Source: Klebsiella phage NU-KP11. From it: DNA of 64,000 nucleotides. Every line of letters begins with the position of its first letter. Position 1 is the stretch's first letter. Positions 32,905 through 56,109 of this stretch are shown in pieces. The position numbers and the translations under genes are program-made. The stretch is from sequence record OR644643.1. The stretch is one strand, 5' to 3'. The notes below the pieces were generated by a model that did no database searches, was not told where the DNA came from, and worked only from the letters and a program-made list of their open reading frames with translations.

Positions 32905-33966
32905 TTAGATTTCACTCATTTTATGAATATAGCCGTTTCGTGAATCCTGGATCTCACATTCACCGTTTTCCATGAACGCTTTCAGGATCGTTTGTACTTC
33001 CTCACTATACTTATAATCAGCATAATCAGTTTTCCAATCTTTACCCTGTGCTTTCTGATACAGAATTTCATCAAGTACCCAATAACCGATCGGGGTAAAG
33101 CTGGTATCACGCCACGGAATCGGGTGAACCGTCCATTTGGAAACGAGATCATCAGAATTTTGATTAACAGTTACGACACATACAGTTGATGTGATGGTAT
33201 CGGAATTCGCATCAGTGACTACAACTTTATACGAACCCGCATCATCCAGAGCCGCACTTGCCACTGTAAGAGTATCCGCATCGTCTCCAACCGGAGAATC
33301 ATCCTTAGTCCATGCATAAGAATAAGGAGAAGTACCACCCAATACAGTTACACTAAGGATCAATGCAGAATCCTGTGTTACGGAAGCGGTCGGGCTTAGA
33401 TTTTTATCAAACGCAAGAGCAGGCGTAACGCTAACAGCACAAGCACTAGAAGTTTTTCTGTTACCCAGTGAATCCGTCACTTCTACCGTATATGAACCTG
33501 CATCACCACTTGCAGCCGCGCTAATTGTTAAGGTTGCAGAATCACCACTAACAACAGTAGAACCACGTTTCCATACATAGGTATACGGGGATTTACCGCC
33601 AGTTACCGCAACAGTCAGGGTAAGTTCTTTACCAGTAACAACAGATTTTGTTGCAGGTAAATCAGTACCAAATGCGATTACCGGATAAGTGATCACGGTG
33701 ATTGTATCAGACGTGGTTTCTGTTGCTGATTCTTCATCAGCACCGTGTTTTAAGATCAGGGTATAATCACCAGCAGTTGTACCGTCAACCGTAGTTGTGT
33801 AAGTATCGGCGGTTGCGTCTGGAATATCTACACCATCTTTTTGCCAACGATAGGCCAGAAACACATCACCAGGATCTAGTTCAGTAGTTTCAACCTCTAA
33901 GGTCAAAGTTTCGCCAATCAAAAGTTCGTTTTTGTTGGCGCTAATTGTTACAGAAGGAATTGCCAT
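32905..33966 (-). CDS. hoc: highly immunogenic outer capsid protein Hoc (three Ig-like domains plus C-terminal capsid-binding domain)
   Basis: C-terminal domain matches T4 Hoc (HPLPHR/HPIPWR, GKDWKTD, SRNGYI). Three tandem Ig-like repeats with SPY(T/S)Y.W(K/T) and GSY.V.VTD motifs. Confidence 0.85.
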   Translation of the reverse strand: MAIPSVTISANKNELLIGETLTLEVETTELDPGDVFLAYRWQKDGVDIPDATADTYTTTVDGTTAGDYTLILKHGADEESATETTSDTITVITYPVIAFGTDLPATKSVVTGKELTLTVAVTGGKSPYTYVWKRGSTVVSGDSATLTISAAASGDAGSYTVEVTDSLGNRKTSSACAVSVTPALAFDKNLSPTASVTQDSALILSVTVLGGTSPYSYAWTKDDSPVGDDADTLTVASAALDDAGSYKVVVTDANSDTITSTVCVVTVNQNSDDLVSKWTVHPIPWRDTSFTPIGYWVLDEILYQKAQGKDWKTDYADYKYSEEVQTILKAFMENGECEIQDSRNGYIHKMSEI

Positions 33967-33994: not shown

Positions 33995-34564
33995 TTATAG
34001 CCGGAGTATTTTACCGTTACACGTTCCGCATTTGTCGTAGTCGTTAACACGTCCATACCCATTACATTCAGGACAAAACGGAGTAGTAACCCCGAAAACG
34101 TTACGGATCGCATAAGTGGATTGTTCTTCGGTCAACCCAACAAACCCATCAGTTTTAATAAAATGTTCTTTTTGTGAAGAAAGCATATCGGTGTCATCAT
34201 CAAGAATGAGATAGTTTTTACATCCGAAAGTATCGATCCATGCCTTGATTTCATCACCACGCATTCCAGTACTATGAGGGAAGTTAGTGCAAGTTTTACC
34301 AATGATCCGATACAATCCCCACGGATAAAATATTTCACGTAGATTATGGGTACTGTTGCCGATTCTCCACGTAGAGGAAATGACGATATCACAATTAGCG
34401 TGATTCACTATCCGGCGTAAGTGTCGTGCGCATTCGATGTCCATATGTTCACCAAATTTCATGCACCGCATATTATTTAGAACGCCATCGATATCAAGAA
34501 AAATAACGTTACCAATCTCGTTACCATCGCTCAAATCTTTTAAACATTCGTGATTTAAGTTCAT
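33995..34564 (-). CDS. HAD-like phosphatase with C-terminal Cys4 zinc ribbon
   Basis: Motif I VIFLDIDGVLNN. C-terminal CPECNGYG...CGTCNG. Confidence 0.5.
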   Translation of the reverse strand: MNLNHECLKDLSDGNEIGNVIFLDIDGVLNNMRCMKFGEHMDIECARHLRRIVNHANCDIVISSTWRIGNSTHNLREIFYPWGLYRIIGKTCTNFPHSTGMRGDEIKAWIDTFGCKNYLILDDDTDMLSSQKEHFIKTDGFVGLTEEQSTYAIRNVFGVTTPFCPECNGYGRVNDYDKCGTCNGKILRL

Positions 34565-51993: not shown

Positions 51994-52932
51994 TTACATC
52001 ATCAACACTGGAAGTGCATCAGACAGTAATAGAAGTTCTTGACGGAGGTTTTCTTTTTCTTGCATAGCTTCCTGTATCAGTCGGGTTCCATCCGGAGCAA
52101 CACCGCCAGGCAATTGCATACCCTGAAACTTAGCCAGCACCTGACCGTTTACCTCTTTAACAAGAGCAGTTGCGTAATCTTTCACCCAACGGTTGTTATA
52201 CGCAGAGGATGAACCCTGAACGCTTGTACCTTGACCAGCCTTCACACCGCCTGAGACGGCTTTGTAGGGGTTATTGTATATATCTGCTATAGTTGGCTTA
52301 TCTTCACCATCAGAACCCGCTGTAGCGTATCCAGCGACGTTACCGACCATACTGGGTACATCAACAAAGGATCTGATCATTGCTTCGATAACAACAATAT
52401 CACCATCTTTAACAGTTCCGTATACTGCAAACTGTCCTGTGTCGTCGTTATACCAGTAATCCGGAAGCGGAGACAGGAGATCTTGCATTGACCGCTGATA
52501 GCTCATCATCTGGGTAAAATAGCCCATATCCGCGCCGTATGCGTTCATTCCGTAGGTACGTGATGCACAACCACCACCGCCCAGAGAACCACCAGTAAGG
52601 CCCATCAGGAAATCAGTAAACCACGGATAAACCGCAGTACCATCCATCGATACAAGGGAACCCATGTTAGTACGCAACACTTTAGTAATTGCGAAAATGT
52701 GTTCTTTACTCAGATCGAAAATATTTTTCGGGTTATCCGGCCCCAGGGTAAGAATGATATACCCTTTGTTAGATCCATTGTAATGATATTCTGCATATAG
52801 GTCTAATGCTCGTTGAATGCAGTCATAAACCTGATCTGTTGTCACTTCGATTTTGACGATCGGAGCACCTAAGCGGCGCAGAATTTCATCTTTTAATTGT
52901 GCTGGGTTGTTCGTAATCATAAAGATCCTCAA
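51994..52932 (-). CDS. 13: neck protein gp13
   Basis: 312 aa (T4 309). Position. Confidence 0.8.
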   Translation of the reverse strand: MRIFMITNNPAQLKDEILRRLGAPIVKIEVTTDQVYDCIQRALDLYAEYHYNGSNKGYIILTLGPDNPKNIFDLSKEHIFAITKVLRTNMGSLVSMDGTAVYPWFTDFLMGLTGGSLGGGGCASRTYGMNAYGADMGYFTQMMSYQRSMQDLLSPLPDYWYNDDTGQFAVYGTVKDGDIVVIEAMIRSFVDVPSMVGNVAGYATAGSDGEDKPTIADIYNNPYKAVSGGVKAGQGTSVQGSSSAYNNRWVKDYATALVKEVNGQVLAKFQGMQLPGGVAPDGTRLIQEAMQEKENLRQELLLLSDALPVLMM

Positions 52933-52939
52933 AAGGGGC

Positions 52940-52959
52940 CGAAGCCCCTTGTTAATCGT
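52940..52959 (-). terminator. hairpin AAGGGGCTTCGGCCCCTTTT between wac and gene 13 (identical to the element after gene 37)
   Basis: Same 18-mer AAGGGGCCGAAGCCCCTT on the plus strand as at 3799-3816. GAGGA RBS of gene 13 follows. Confidence 0.4.
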
Positions 52960-54710
52960 TAAGCGACAGTGATCGCCAGTTCATCAGAAACGATGACTTT
53001 ATGGCTTGCATCAGTTACCGTTACTTTGTAGGTTCCGGAATCAGAAGGCTGTAGCGAATCAATGGTAAATGTGTTAGCATTAGTACCAACATTTACGCCG
53101 TTCTTCGTCCACTGATAAGACAGCGGAGAAACACCACCAGTCATAGTTACGCTTAGAGACAATGGATCGCCAGTAGTGTATTCAGTATCACCAGTTAGGT
53201 TAGTACCGAATGACAGAGGCGGGTTTTTGCTCTCATAACGGAGATCAGCGTCAGCTTCTTTGATGTACAGAGCCAGTTTAGCATTCAGATCTTCGATAGT
53301 TACTCGATCTGCAAGTGCTTGTGCAATGTTCAACGCTTCTAAATCCTCAACACGTTTATTAAGGTCGGCAATCAGTGCATAAATGCCCGTTTCGTTACCT
53401 TCTGCGTTATCCCCTACCTGAGTGAACAGGTTGCGGGTTGTCGTTTTCAACCCAGCGCGAGTAACAGGATCGGCACTAACACCATCACCATAGATTTCTT
53501 TGTTAATCTGCTGGCTAGTTGCAACGAGGCCACTAGAAGAGTTACCTACAACGCCTTGCAGTTCCCAGAGTGCGCTAGTGTTGGTGCGTAATTCACCCTC
53601 AACAACACTCAAACGGCCTTTGATGCTGGTAGGATCTGAATCTTCGCCAATGTCACCAGTTAAGATCGCAACTTGTCCCTGCAATCCTTCATCACCGGAT
53701 TCGCCTAGAATCATTTCCATATCCATCAATCTGCGTTTGTTTTCCGCAATATCATAACGGATACTACCCTGAACAGAAACCGTACCAATTTGACCGTTAA
53801 TGGTTGCAATTTGTGCAGTGATACCAGTTACCGGATCGTTGATTTGTGTAGCCAGAGAACTAACGGAGTTTTCCAGACTGTTCACACGATCGTTAATGGA
53901 ACTGGTTGAACCTGACGTGCGACCTATATAACTATTAATCGCATCAAGTTCATTTTGCATTACAATAGAACCATCCTCAAGGATCTTGATTCGCGCATAG
54001 ATTGATCGGGTTGTGGCAAGACCAGAATCACCCATTTCAGCACGAAGTTCTTTTACCTCTTCTGTCAGTTGTCCTACTTCGGAAAGCGCCCAATCATCTT
54101 CCAGTTTGGTTATGCGAGTTTCCTGCATAGAAATAGCACGTTGGTTACTCAGTACGCGGTATTTAAGGCCAGTACCAGTAGAAGAGGGGTCAACATCACC
54201 ATCAACGTTAAATCCAGGATATGAACCAACTTCTTTCTTAATGTAAATGATATCATTACGAATTGTGCGGTGTTTAGGATCCTTTTCTGGATCGTATTCA
54301 CCAATTTCATCGTTTTGAGCATTTACAGAAAGGGTTAACTGTGCTACCTTGTTCTGTGTTTGGGTGTTAGATAAAGTTAATGCCTGAACATCCTGATCCA
54401 ACTGGTTAACTTTTTTGATTACGCTTTCATCACCAATAGCATCAATGTTTTCAGTAATCAAGTTAACCTGATCGATTACTTCGTTGATTTTATCATTATG
54501 GGTGATGGTATTTTGTTCTAACTGAACCGCGTTCTGCTGGATGCTTACACCAGTTCGGTTAAGACTGCCAGTGTTTGACATTTTATCTGGCGAACCGTCC
54601 AGAGTTTCACCGTTTTTGATCCAAATAATCTTCGTTTGAGTCGTGGCGTCATCTGGGACGCCATCAACAAACGGGATCTTCGGCAACGGGTTTAATTTGT
54701 CGATGATCAT
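52959..54710 (-). CDS. wac: fibritin (wac) with a C-terminal Ig-like domain in place of the T4 foldon
   Basis: N-terminus LPKIPFVDGVPDD...IIWIKNGE and TIRNDIIYIKKEVGSY match T4 Wac. Long heptad-repeat coiled coil. Last ~85 aa (GGVSPLSYQWTKNG...GTYKVTVTD) resemble the Hoc Ig repeats. No [27 protein letters not shown]-like foldon. Confidence 0.85.
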   Translation of the reverse strand: MIIDKLNPLPKIPFVDGVPDDATTQTKIIWIKNGETLDGSPDKMSNTGSLNRTGVSIQQNAVQLEQNTITHNDKINEVIDQVNLITENIDAIGDESVIKKVNQLDQDVQALTLSNTQTQNKVAQLTLSVNAQNDEIGEYDPEKDPKHRTIRNDIIYIKKEVGSYPGFNVDGDVDPSSTGTGLKYRVLSNQRAISMQETRITKLEDDWALSEVGQLTEEVKELRAEMGDSGLATTRSIYARIKILEDGSIVMQNELDAINSYIGRTSGSTSSINDRVNSLENSVSSLATQINDPVTGITAQIATINGQIGTVSVQGSIRYDIAENKRRLMDMEMILGESGDEGLQGQVAILTGDIGEDSDPTSIKGRLSVVEGELRTNTSALWELQGVVGNSSSGLVATSQQINKEIYGDGVSADPVTRAGLKTTTRNLFTQVGDNAEGNETGIYALIADLNKRVEDLEALNIAQALADRVTIEDLNAKLALYIKEADADLRYESKNPPLSFGTNLTGDTEYTTGDPLSLSVTMTGGVSPLSYQWTKNGVNVGTNANTFTIDSLQPSDSGTYKVTVTDASHKVIVSDELAITVA

Positions 54711-54723
54711 TTAATAACCTCTG

Positions 54724-56109
54724 TTATAATACGCGAATTACGTAGTTTAATGCGATGTTTTTCATGCGGGTTTCTTCTCCGCCCACACCAGTAGCTTTAG
54801 TTATGGAAGAATCAAACACGCGAGCACTCTGATCGTTTTTCTCGGCGCTTTTAAGTTCATAAACTGCTTGCCATTTCGGAATATTACCGCCGTTCTGGTA
54901 GATAAGCTGTAATGGGTGTTCGTGCCAGCCCAACATATCGCCTTCATATGTACCATACCCACGATTAGGGTTTAATCCGCGTCCACGGTCATGACCACGT
55001 ACTGCAACGCCTCGACAATCTGGAAGGTTAAACCAATCACCGCCACCACCAAATGTATAACCTATACGCTCAAAAAGTAACGGATAGTTATTTTTATTCA
55101 GTGAGCGACCATCACAAATATACAAACTACCGTGGTCAGTCTGAAACCCAGTCATGACAATAGCACCTACTGGGAAATGCCAATCAAGATCTGTCCACGT
55201 CTGATATTTGTTGTTATATATTGCGCTATTCTCATAAAGAGAACCGTTAATTACCGCATTTCGATCACTAGGTAATACCGCAGCGTTTGAAGAAAGTGCA
55301 GTGTTTGCCACATAACCAACAGTTGTTGCTAATTTGACAACACCGAACTGAGATCCAGTTGCACGGGTATTGATTAATTTTTTCGCAGTAATCGCTTTGG
55401 TGTCATCAGTACCCGCGTTTGCTTCTGCCTGTGATGCGATACGAATAACGCCCAGGTTGCTTTCAGTTGCAGTTAAACGAATAAACGTATAAGGTGAAAT
55501 TGCATACCCTTCACGGATCGTACCAGCCTGAACCTGTGCAACTGTTGCCAGTTGTACCAAACCTTGCGAGCTTTCGGTCGCACTTGACTGAACAGGAACC
55601 AGAGACGCGATCGCTTGCTTGACTTTAAGCGGAGTCATAGTTACAGTGTTATCTGTACCAGCAACCGCCTGTGCAGTGGTAGCAATTTTAGAAGAACCCC
55701 AAACCGATTCTGTACCTTTACGGTTATTGAACACATAGTTCAGAGATCGCGGAGTAATAGACGATGCATCGTTAGTTACGGTTGTAGATTCCGCATCAGT
55801 CGAATACTTCGTATAACCCCATACGGTTTGTGATGCTTTAGGGTTCTGCATACGATATGCTAACAGTTTCGGAGTAACAATCTTAGTGTTATCCGTGCCA
55901 GCGTCAATATCAGCTTCGGTTGCGATCTGAGCAATACCACGAACAGAAGTTGTTGCGATAGGAAGCCCAGTATCAGTACGCGCCCAACTACCTATTTTTT
56001 CCAACGCATCTTGTACGTTGGTTATGGTATCAGGCCAATCAGTACCTGTTGGGTCAAATGTCACGTAAATGGATTTATCACTTACGTGGTTGATTGTATT
56101 GTTACTCAT
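54724..56109 (-). CDS. 12: short tail fibre gp12
   Basis: MSNNTINHVSDKSIYVTFDPTGTDWPDTITNVQ matches the T4 gp12 N-terminus. C-terminal TRMKNIALNYVIRV vs T4 TRPWNISLNYIIKV. Confidence 0.85.
   Translation of the reverse strand: MSNNTINHVSDKSIYVTFDPTGTDWPDTITNVQDALEKIGSWARTDTGLPIATTSVRGIAQIATEADIDAGTDNTKIVTPKLLAYRMQNPKASQTVWGYTKYSTDAESTTVTNDASSITPRSLNYVFNNRKGTESVWGSSKIATTAQAVAGTDNTVTMTPLKVKQAIASLVPVQSSATESSQGLVQLATVAQVQAGTIREGYAISPYTFIRLTATESNLGVIRIASQAEANAGTDDTKAITAKKLINTRATGSQFGVVKLATTVGYVANTALSSNAAVLPSDRNAVINGSLYENSAIYNNKYQTWTDLDWHFPVGAIVMTGFQTDHGSLYICDGRSLNKNNYPLLFERIGYTFGGGGDWFNLPDCRGVAVRGHDRGRGLNPNRGYGTYEGDMLGWHEHPLQLIYQNGGNIPKWQAVYELKSAEKNDQSARVFDSSITKATGVGGEETRMKNIALNYVIRVL

Follow-up and report, generated by a model that had tools for sequence, protein, structure and literature searches.

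The fibritin (Wac) of phage T4 ends in a foldon, a hairpin of 27 amino acids, whereas in the fibritin described here the coiled coil is followed by a short junction and an Ig-like domain of 87 residues. This raises the question which part of such a protein sets the chains of the trimer in register, and what the function of the Ig domain at the whisker tip may be. The protein was analysed in the window, i.e. the whole stretch of 64,000 nucleotides of Klebsiella phage NU-KP11 (sequence record OR644643.1).

The wac gene, its surroundings and the shaft of the encoded protein

The wac gene is located at 52959..54710 on the minus strand, including the stop codon (52959-52961), and encodes a fibritin or neck whisker protein of 583 amino acids. 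It was assigned from the list of open reading frames and by the PHROG fibritin family phrog_1056, which matches residues 2-579 (E=2e-163). An identical protein of 583 residues has been deposited as 'fibritin [Klebsiella phage KP5]', and the UniRef name for a near-identical entry is 'Ig-like domain-containing protein'. The PDB holds an entry described as 'putative neck whiskers protein gp24' (9occ). A nucleotide search revealed the full-length gene in 109 GenBank phage records, 108 of them with at least 95% nucleotide identity, and almost all of these are Klebsiella phages, for example KP15, KP27 and Miro. The fibritins of KP15 (YP_003580044.1) and other Slopekvirus phages are the same protein of 583 amino acids, 98-100% identical, with few substitutions among variants. 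The window is from a Slopekvirus, i.e. a KP15-like Klebsiella phage. Published virion mass spectrometry data (PMC13119998) were set aside as evidence because they concern a Jiaodavirus and not a Slopekvirus.

The open reading frame upstream of wac (54724..56109) carries Collar and gp12 domains, and the one downstream is gp13 according to the KP15 annotation; the position of wac between gp12 and gp13 is the same in KP15 and T2. A terminator-like hairpin (GGGGC-UUCG-GCCCC followed by UUUU) can be read from the sequence 11 nucleotides past the wac stop codon (52931..52948, minus strand). A 'putative terminator' is annotated at the matching position in the RefSeq record of KP15, a Slopekvirus in which the order is likewise gp10-gp11-gp12-wac-terminator-gp13. 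The hairpin at 52931..52948 was not picked up by a scan for consensus terminators because its T-run comprises only four T. An extra chaperone gene after wac, similar to that of Aeh1, was considered and rejected, as the gap between wac and the ATG of gp13 measures 38 nucleotides and contains the hairpin.

The N-terminal domain (residues 1-50; 54561..54710, minus strand) was recognised from invariant alignment columns and corresponds to the domain by which T4 fibritin is attached to the virion neck (PMC3797505). In an alignment with RB43-like, T2 and RB49 Wac the invariant N-terminal columns are P13, V15, D16, G17, P19, W30, I31, N33, G34, E35, G48, N51 and R52, and among 119 KP15-type sequences this domain is the least variable region of the protein, with 4% variable sites. 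It is followed by a segmented coiled-coil shaft (residues ~51-468; 53307..54560, minus strand), assigned by Pfam, identity to T-even fibritins and AF2 modelling. The Pfam family Fibritin_C (PF07921) matches residues 378-483 (53262-53579; E=1.5e-12, covering positions 5-81 of the 93 in the profile), most of the match lying inside the shaft, and the AF2 model of the monomer has helices across residues 440-491, of which the first spans 440-468. The N-terminal domain, the segmented coiled coil and the position between gp12 and gp13 are shared with T4/T2 Wac. The original prediction, which was made from the sequence, had stated that the N-terminal ~490 residues match T4 Wac; this agrees with the phrog_1056 match and with a tblastn alignment of residues 9-489 to T2/T6-type wac genes (~28% identity, E~1e-38 to 1e-45).

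The C-terminal Ig-like domain and its relation to Hoc

The last 87 residues (497-583; 52962..53222, minus strand) form an Ig-like domain of the I-set or Hoc-like kind, as indicated by Pfam, PDB matches, AF2 and Foldseek; the range 52959..53220 given earlier comprises the stop codon and the last ~86 codons of wac. When the C-terminal 103 amino acids were compared to Pfam, three Ig families exceeded their curated gathering cut-offs: Ig_3 (E=6e-10, 39.9 bits, cut-off 30), Ig_2 (E=1e-7, 32.2 bits, cut-off 27) and I-set (E=1e-6, 29.1 bits, cut-off 23.7). Hoc-like PHROG families match the domain with E=5e-20 and 2e-19, and PDB sequence matches include 8zvi (4e-12), the decoration protein 5lxk (3e-10) and Hoc (3shs, 3e-4). 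The AF2 model of the monomer shows a beta-sandwich of eight strands with pLDDT 93-97 over residues 500-582. A Foldseek search of the PDB with the model returned Ig domains at probability 1.00, including the decoration Ig domains of N4 and Moo19, as well as the Ig domain of MALT1 (3bfo; TM 0.91 normalised to the target, rmsd 1.4 A). Residues 497-583 are an I-set-like Ig domain, and the assignment is far beyond chance. There is one such domain per chain, fused C-terminally to a predicted trimeric neck fibre, and a trimeric whisker tip therefore carries three.

The window also harbors hoc (32905..33966, minus strand), located outside wac and used for comparison. According to its translation and Pfam it encodes a protein of 353 amino acids with three Ig-like domains and a C-terminal domain. 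Hoc is monomeric. The strings GGVSPLSYQWTKNGVNVG and SGTYKVTVTD are found in Wac, and the strings SPYTYVWKRG/GSYTVEVTD and SPYSYAWTKD/GSYKVVVTD in Hoc. With BLASTP, the Wac Ig domain matches domain 3 of this Hoc at 45% identity (E=2e-19), domain 2 at 36% identity (E=5e-15) and domain 1 weakly (E=4e-4). A tblastn search of the window gave no Wac-type Ig domains outside wac and hoc. The Wac Ig domain is a member of the phage Ig family that also comprises the Hoc and T5-like decoration domains (the Hoc of this window, 3shs, 5lxk/8zvi), with the motifs GG.xPY.Y.W.K and GxYxVxVTD in common and 37% identity to the 5lxk domain. The Hoc and decoration Ig domains are found on capsid-bound proteins, whereas that of Wac is fused to a neck fibre.

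These results uphold the original prediction that a Hoc-like Ig domain stands where T4 has its foldon: the C-terminus matches Ig_3, Ig_2 and I-set above cut-off, as had been expected of a Pfam comparison, and the predicted fold is an Ig sandwich preceded by a helical segment, not the foldon-like hairpin that would have spoken against it. The claim that the Ig signature occurs three times in Hoc is likewise borne out by the three BLASTP matches, domain 1 being far more divergent than domains 2 and 3.

The Ig domain could have been copied recently from the resident Hoc, and this was rejected. Its identity to Hoc Ig3 is 45%, as compared to 49% for Ig1 of RB43-like fibritins and 47% for the domain of the single-domain fibritin P0137, and it is with these two fibritin domains that it groups. 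A hypervariable or diversified tip was rejected as well. Among the 119 KP15-type variants the variability of the Ig domain (10% variable sites) equals that of the shaft (13%). With variability not exceeding that of the shaft, the domain shows no sign of the diversifying selection that might be expected of a host-range determinant.

Related fibritins and the number of Ig domains

Fibritins with Ig domains have been described before. Letarov & Krisch 2013 (PMC3797505) mention a single Ig-like domain in the RB43-like fibritin of KP-15 and three in that of RB43 (cited there as AAP04365.1), and credit the latter to Letarov 2005. An Ig-tipped fibritin is thus already known, the RB43 type since 2005 and the single-domain KP15 form since 2013, and is normal for phages of the KP15/RB43 type. 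The fibritin described here is of this type: the Ig domain is C-terminal to the shaft and homology to RB43-like Wac extends over the full length, with 52% identity. The comparison with RB43-like phages that had been suggested with the original prediction accordingly yielded homologous Ig-tipped fibritins.

A first large protein search returned near-identical KP15-type sequences only (more than 100 distinct proteins from metagenomes and genomes), and diversity was obtained with the C-terminus of an RB43-like Wac as query. Proteins of the RB43 type (Pseudotevenvirus), for example gp207 of Citrobacter phage Xman (762 amino acids), share the junction motif and the type of Ig domain with the Wac studied here, and their Ig1 is the closest relative of the KP15 Ig domain (49%). 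They carry three Ig domains as well as an extra Gly-rich loop and a coil segment before the junction, whereas a single Ig domain is found in the KP15 type. Other sequences have three Ig domains (L012, L014, L015 and L058), two (L011 and L013), four (P0122) or one (P0124, P0128, P0137 and P0140). Neighbour-joining placed the KP15 Ig domain together with Ig1 of RB43-like Wac and not with Hoc, and the paralogue that is kept differs among the single-domain lineages (Ig1-like, Ig3-like or Ig4-like). Across this clade, gain and loss of whole domains has resulted in 1 to 4 Ig domains per fibritin.

The distribution also bears on the explanation that the Ig tail is an artefact in which a sequencing or assembly error, or read-through, fused wac to a separate Ig-encoding reading frame. 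Nothing in its favour was seen. Since the same reading frame of 583 codons occurs in the 109 GenBank phage records and in more than 100 distinct proteins, and a homologous fusion is present in RB43-like phages, the probability of this explanation is negligible.

Registration of the trimer and the role of the Ig domain

The T4 foldon beta-hairpin is absent from this Wac, which thereby differs from the T4/JS98-type fibritins. A Smith-Waterman alignment of Wac to the T2 foldon was no better than those of shuffled sequences (p=0.16), while RB49 gave p<1/3000. A foldon HMM built from seven sequences reported nothing in Wac, and neither did a leave-out HMM that detected the divergent foldon of RB49 at 8.9 bits. 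The foldon hairpin has a conserved Trp; no G.W motif occurs where the shaft approaches its C-terminus, and in the AF2 model of the monomer the segment before the Ig domain is helical rather than a beta-hairpin. The original prediction had noted that no foldon-like motif is present, in line with the alignment and with the silence of both HMMs.

A cryptic or degenerate foldon could be hidden between shaft and Ig domain, where YIKEADAD resembles the T4 sequence YIPEAPRD, with the Ig domain supplementing it. MAFFT indeed aligns the T2 foldon stretch YIPEAPRD with YIKEADADLRYESKN, and a match to T4 residues 450-465 gave a shuffle p of 0.03. The T4 'YIP' element has been classed as a beta-layer (PMC4786415), so that this initial foldon element may be common to both. 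The hairpin half DGxxYVRKDGxW, however, has no counterpart in Wac, HMM scores are nil in Wac and negative in RB43-like Wac, and AF2 (monomer) predicts a helix in the YIKEADAD segment. A cryptic foldon is very unlikely and was rejected on the shuffle tests, including that of the full-foldon alignment, and on the two HMMs; any overlap between the two proteins is limited to the first beta-layer element.

The junction itself (residues 469-496, RVTIEDLNAKLALYIKEADADLRYESKN; 53223..53306, minus strand) may form a beta-layer that caps the coiled coil, as suggested by alignment, AF2 and motif matches. Its 28 residues are conserved in all Ig-type fibritins that were aligned, and the AF2 monomer model shows helix breaks at residues 469-471 and 483-484, with the last helix ending at 491; these breaks coincide with the sites at which three-residue beta-layers across the trimer axis would be expected. 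An ungapped match of 14 residues connects the junction to the neck of the P22 tailspike (113-YSIEADKKFKYSVK-126; shuffle p=0.003). Using the beta-layer motif definitions of Hartmann et al. 2016 (PMC4786415), motif matches had p~0.003-0.007 before correction for about four independent tests. When the junction alignment was used for a profile search of the PDB, nothing significant was returned, the best relevant entry being 7o9v (E=0.48). The conserved junction YIKEADADLRYESK resembles in sequence the P22 tailspike neck, a beta-layer specific to trimers, where the common motif Y..EAD...[KR]Y..K closes a trimeric coil just ahead of a beta domain; the likeness is at the level of the motif only.

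That the foldon is replaced by the Ig domain, as originally predicted, is correct with regard to the absence of the foldon, but the data do not warrant the conclusion that the Ig domain takes over trimerisation and registration, for which the conserved junction just upstream is the better candidate. An Ig domain that functionally replaces the foldon, nucleating trimerisation and aligning the coiled coil from its C-terminal side, would fit the absence of the T4 foldon and of a chaperone reading frame between wac and gp13. Moreover, fibritins other than those of the T4/JS98 type are described as relying on expanded C-terminal domain sequences for folding and trimerisation, without a separate chaperone (PMC3797505); for the folding of RB43 fibritin the same article reports a requirement for sequences within this enlarged domain, with which a role of the Ig domains themselves would also be compatible. 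Against this, the Ig paralogue (Ig1-, Ig3- or Ig4-like) and the number of copies (1-4) differ by lineage while the junction is constant, and the homologous Ig domains of Hoc and decoration proteins are found on monomeric chains. We consider a foldon-like function of the Ig domain unlikely, and infer that the trimer is registered by the junction instead, with the Ig domain probably acting as a weak adhesin for glycans.

In the mechanism that we propose, the coiled coil together with its conserved beta-layer-like cap would bring the chains into alignment at their C-terminal ends, with the Ig domains as exposed accessory modules. By analogy with Hoc, for which such contacts have been proposed, the latter would probably make weak, reversible carbohydrate contacts on the host surface or in the surroundings (capsule, LPS, mucus). 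An adhesin-like accessory role of Ig fibritins was suggested before (PMC3797505), and fibritin is listed among the Ig-bearing virion proteins in an article that describes a mucus-adherence model (PMC7563437).

The Ig domains may also supply contact to the long tail fibres. A stronger version of this idea, in which the domain is mainly a docking site for these fibres, with the function in fibre contact and retraction that the C-terminus has in T4, rather than an environmental adhesin, is compatible with the contact that the C-terminal part of T4 fibritin makes with the long tail fibre close to the knee (PMC3797505), with the same distal position of the Ig domain, and with purifying selection on this domain as on the rest of Wac. 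Copy number and paralogue nevertheless vary among closely related genomes, and a single specific protein-protein interface is therefore hard to reconcile with the observed variation; docking as the main function appears rather improbable, although less so than a foldon-like function.

Very probably the protein is an ordinary Slopekvirus fibritin of the published RB43/KP15 type, with the architecture, evolution and mechanism proposed here. A more far-reaching possibility, put forward tentatively and with less than even confidence, is that the junction of Ig-tipped fibritins lacking a foldon is a beta-layer cap (with the P22-like Y..EAD...KY..K and, in some lineages, the LxxKAxxxxVYTKxE tandem) that acts as a compact, transferable, foldon-equivalent registration element, while an adhesin array of 1-4 swapping Ig paralogues tunes the binding of the whisker tip to capsule or mucus.

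As a discovery the Ig-tipped KP15 fibritin carries little weight, and databases already tag the Ig-like domain. What is added here is the variation in Ig number from 1 to 4, the lineage-specific paralogues, the grouping of the KP15 Ig domain with Ig1 of the RB43 type, and the likeness of the junction to the P22 neck. If the junction is indeed a foldon-independent element for trimer registration, it would be of interest to protein engineers who use the T4 foldon. Work on phage therapy against Klebsiella makes wide use of KP15-like phages, and the exposed Ig domains of their whiskers may influence adherence to capsule or mucus as well as immunogenicity.

The wac gene and its neighbourhood

The region 52959..53220 is the 3′ end of the wac open reading frame on the minus strand (52959..54710 in the ORF list), which encodes a fibritin of 583 amino acids (Wac). 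PHROG assigns the protein to the fibritin neck whiskers (phrog_1056, E=2e-163, residues 2-579), and Pfam places Fibritin_C at residues 378-483. By megablast, 109 phage records cover the gene in full (100%), 108 of them with at least 95% identity; nearly all come from Klebsiella phages, KP15, KP27, Miro and PMBT1 among them. A deposited 'fibritin [Klebsiella phage KP5]' is identical to Wac and carries precomputed Pfam Ig domains, while a near-identical UniRef entry is named 'Ig-like domain-containing protein'.

The gene order around wac is the same as in the KP15 (Slopekvirus kp15) record, gp10-gp11-gp12-wac-terminator-gp13-gp14. A hairpin GGGGC-UUCG-GCCCC followed by UUUU lies 11 nt past the wac stop codon (52931-52948, minus strand), at the place where the KP15 RefSeq record annotates a putative terminator; the consensus terminator scan overlooked it because its T-run counts only four T. 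The mechanical ORF of gp13 (51994-52932, minus strand) starts at a TTG within this hairpin. Judging by the KP15 annotation, the true start is likely the ATG at 52920 (MITNNPAQ...), with GAGGA ahead and a 308-aa product.

The C-terminal Ig domain and the foldon

The original prediction, that this fibritin ends in a Hoc-like Ig domain instead of the foldon, is supported, and all protein strings it quoted are present in the wac frame and in the hoc frame (32905..33966, minus strand). The C-terminal ~90 residues of Wac match 'Hoc-like head decoration' families (phrog_2973, E=5e-20; phrog_4069, E=2e-19), and Pfam Ig_3, Ig_2 and I-set all exceed their curated cut-offs at residues ~507-582. A PDB sequence search with the last 213 residues matched the phage Ig proteins 9ncf (8e-17), 8zvi (4e-12), 5lxk (3e-10; the C-terminal domain of T5 pb10) and Hoc 3shs (3e-4), as well as a solved 'putative neck whiskers protein gp24' (9occ_A, 238 aa) which has an Ig domain of the same kind at its end (E=6e-8) and whose alignment to Wac reaches into the region preceding the Ig domain. 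The AF2 monomer model of residues 430-583, made from a ten-sequence alignment (A2), shows a beta-sandwich over residues 500-582 (block pLDDT 93-97). Foldseek matched it with probability 1.00 to the capsid-decoration Ig domains of N4 and Moo19 and to I-set/C2 Ig domains in the PDB, for example MALT1 (3bfo, target-normalised TM 0.91, rmsd 1.4 Å).

Hoc consists of three Ig-like domains and a C-terminal region of ~85 amino acids. The proposed threefold recurrence of the Ig signature was recovered by BLASTP, in which the Wac domain matched Hoc domain 3 (45% identity, E=2e-19), domain 2 (36%, E=5e-15) and, weakly, domain 1 (E=4e-4). Within the window, Ig domains of this kind are confined to wac and hoc. 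The first Hoc domain is much more divergent than the other two, sharing 14-34% of its residues with the other Ig domains in the comparison. The ORF adjoining hoc (33995-34564, minus strand, 189 aa) encodes HAD_SAK_2, the type of HAD domain found in 'Swiss Army Knife' RNA repair proteins (E=3e-29), and also weakly matches a DnaJ-type CXXCXGXG zinc finger.

Foldon motifs are recognisable in all six comparison fibritins fetched, those of T2, RB49, AnYang (Dhakavirus), KEN25_2 (Jiaodavirus), STP4-a and Moon. In RB49 and KEN25_2 a clear foldon (...YLRKRGEW...) is followed by an extra C-terminal domain of ~135 amino acids, and AnYang has two foldon-like motifs with a coil between, an arrangement that PMC3797505 describes as the JS98 type. 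When aligned locally, the T2 foldon scored 58 against RB49 (p<1/3000) and 23 against Wac residues 431-530, within the shuffle range (p=0.16). A foldon HMM from seven motifs reported no match in Wac and gave only negative scores on RB43-like proteins, at 'ITEAEAD'; with RB49 and KEN25_2 left out of the model, a control HMM still found RB49 (8.9 bits) and found nothing in Wac. The AF2 model has no hairpin upstream of the Ig domain and instead forms helices at residues 440-468, 472-482 and 485-491, although a monomer cannot exclude trimer-dependent structure. The foldon is thus absent from Wac. The Acinetobacter phage DLP3 fibritin (L009 886-2757, 624 aa) has a C-terminal region of ~200 amino acids with neither foldon nor Ig motif, which by sequence appears to be a tip domain of another kind.

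The junction between coiled coil and Ig domain

A stretch that links the last heptad coil to the Ig domain is common to all Ig-type fibritins (junction alignment A3); in Wac it comprises residues 469-496 (53223-53306, minus strand). Its sequence is ADRVTIEDLNAKLALYIKEADADLRYESKNPP in the KP15 type and NKASHQDVxxALVPYITExEADxKYExK in the RB43 type. The foldon alone suffices for folding only in T4- and JS98-type fibritins, the other types depending on sequences of their enlarged C-terminal domain (PMC3797505). The catalogue of trimer-specific 'beta-layers' by Hartmann et al. 2016 (PMC4786415) lists the coiled-coil-to-beta transition of the P22 tailspike (113-YSIEADKKFKYSVK-126), the LxxKADKxxVYTKxE tandem of the HylP1 tail fibre and 'YIP' at the foldon start of T4 fibritin. 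The tailspike segment, a trimeric beta-layer neck, aligns at motif level with YIKEADADLRYESK of Wac, ungapped over 14/14 residues (p=0.003, one of ~4 independent comparisons, uncorrected); the junction sequences YITEAEADVKYEPK (p=0.007) and YITEADADAKYVAK (p=0.003) also align ungapped over 14/14 residues, again uncorrected. The related fibritin P0137 has an LxxKAxxxxVYTKxE tandem known from HylP1, and its LQSKANVSDVYTRTQA matched both that tandem (p=0.002) and PDB 7o9v (p=0.0002), both uncorrected. In the AF2 model the helices are interrupted at residues 469-471 and again at 483-484; the last one stops at 491. A junction profile search of the PDB gave no significant match. Sequence and model suggest, as a lead, that the trimer may be registered by a beta-layer cap at the junction and not by the Ig domain; the faint YI.EA..D likeness to the T4 foldon start, also a lead, may represent a shared beta-layer element.

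Domain number, variation and proposed role

The comparison with RB43-like fibritins bore out the prediction: RB43-like (Pseudotevenvirus) Wac proteins, e.g. of Xman and Entb_46, have 762 amino acids, 52% identity to Wac and three Ig domains. A search with the RB43-like C-terminus and an IMG/VR scan yielded relatives with one Ig domain (P0124 and P0128, 571 aa; P0137, 572 aa; P0140, 573 aa), two (L011, and L013 on a 178.8-kb contig), three (L012, L014, L015 and L058, 176-180 kb genomes) and four (P0122, a fragment), so that the number on RB43/KP15-type fibritins spans 1 to 4. In a neighbour-joining tree of single Ig domains, which are short and for which the tree has no support values, the KP15-type domain clusters with RB43-like Wac Ig1 (49% identity) and P0137 (47%). 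The domains of P0124 and P0128 are of the Ig3 type, being 82% and 69% identical to the third domain of Xman, and the P0140 domain resembles the fourth domain of P0122 (54%). By these comparisons the paralogue retained differs between single-domain lineages: KP15 and P0137 have an Ig1-like domain, P0124 and P0128 an Ig3-like one and P0140 an Ig4-like one. Given also the counts of 1 to 4, whole Ig domains have therefore been repeatedly gained and lost. A recent origin of the KP15 domain as a copy of the resident Hoc was rejected on its grouping with RB43-like Wac Ig1 in the tree (no support values). The Ig domain is not hypervariable in a set of 119 distinct KP15-type sequences: 10% of its sites vary, versus 13% in the shaft, 5% in the junction and 4% in the N-terminal domain, a pattern indicative of ordinary purifying selection.

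Ig domains on these fibritins were already reported, one in KP15 and three in RB43 (PMC3797505, which cites work of 2005 for RB43); the finding is therefore already known, and KP15/RB43-type fibritins normally carry an Ig tip, as published. Modestly new are only the variants with two and four domains, the differing paralogues of the single-domain lineages and the interpretation of the junction as a beta-layer. Fibritin is a trimer whose N-terminal domain binds the neck (PMC3797505), and each whisker tip would display three Ig domains, with chain registration supplied by the junction. A later paper counts fibritin as one of the proteins with Ig domains in contractile-tailed phages and links such domains to mucus adherence (PMC7563437). 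In T4 it is the far end of fibritin that touches the long tail fibre (PMC3797505), and the Ig domains may make such a contact as well. By analogy to Hoc, and in line with the accessory adhesin role suggested for Ig-bearing fibritins (PMC3797505), the whisker-tip domains may bind surface carbohydrate weakly and reversibly.
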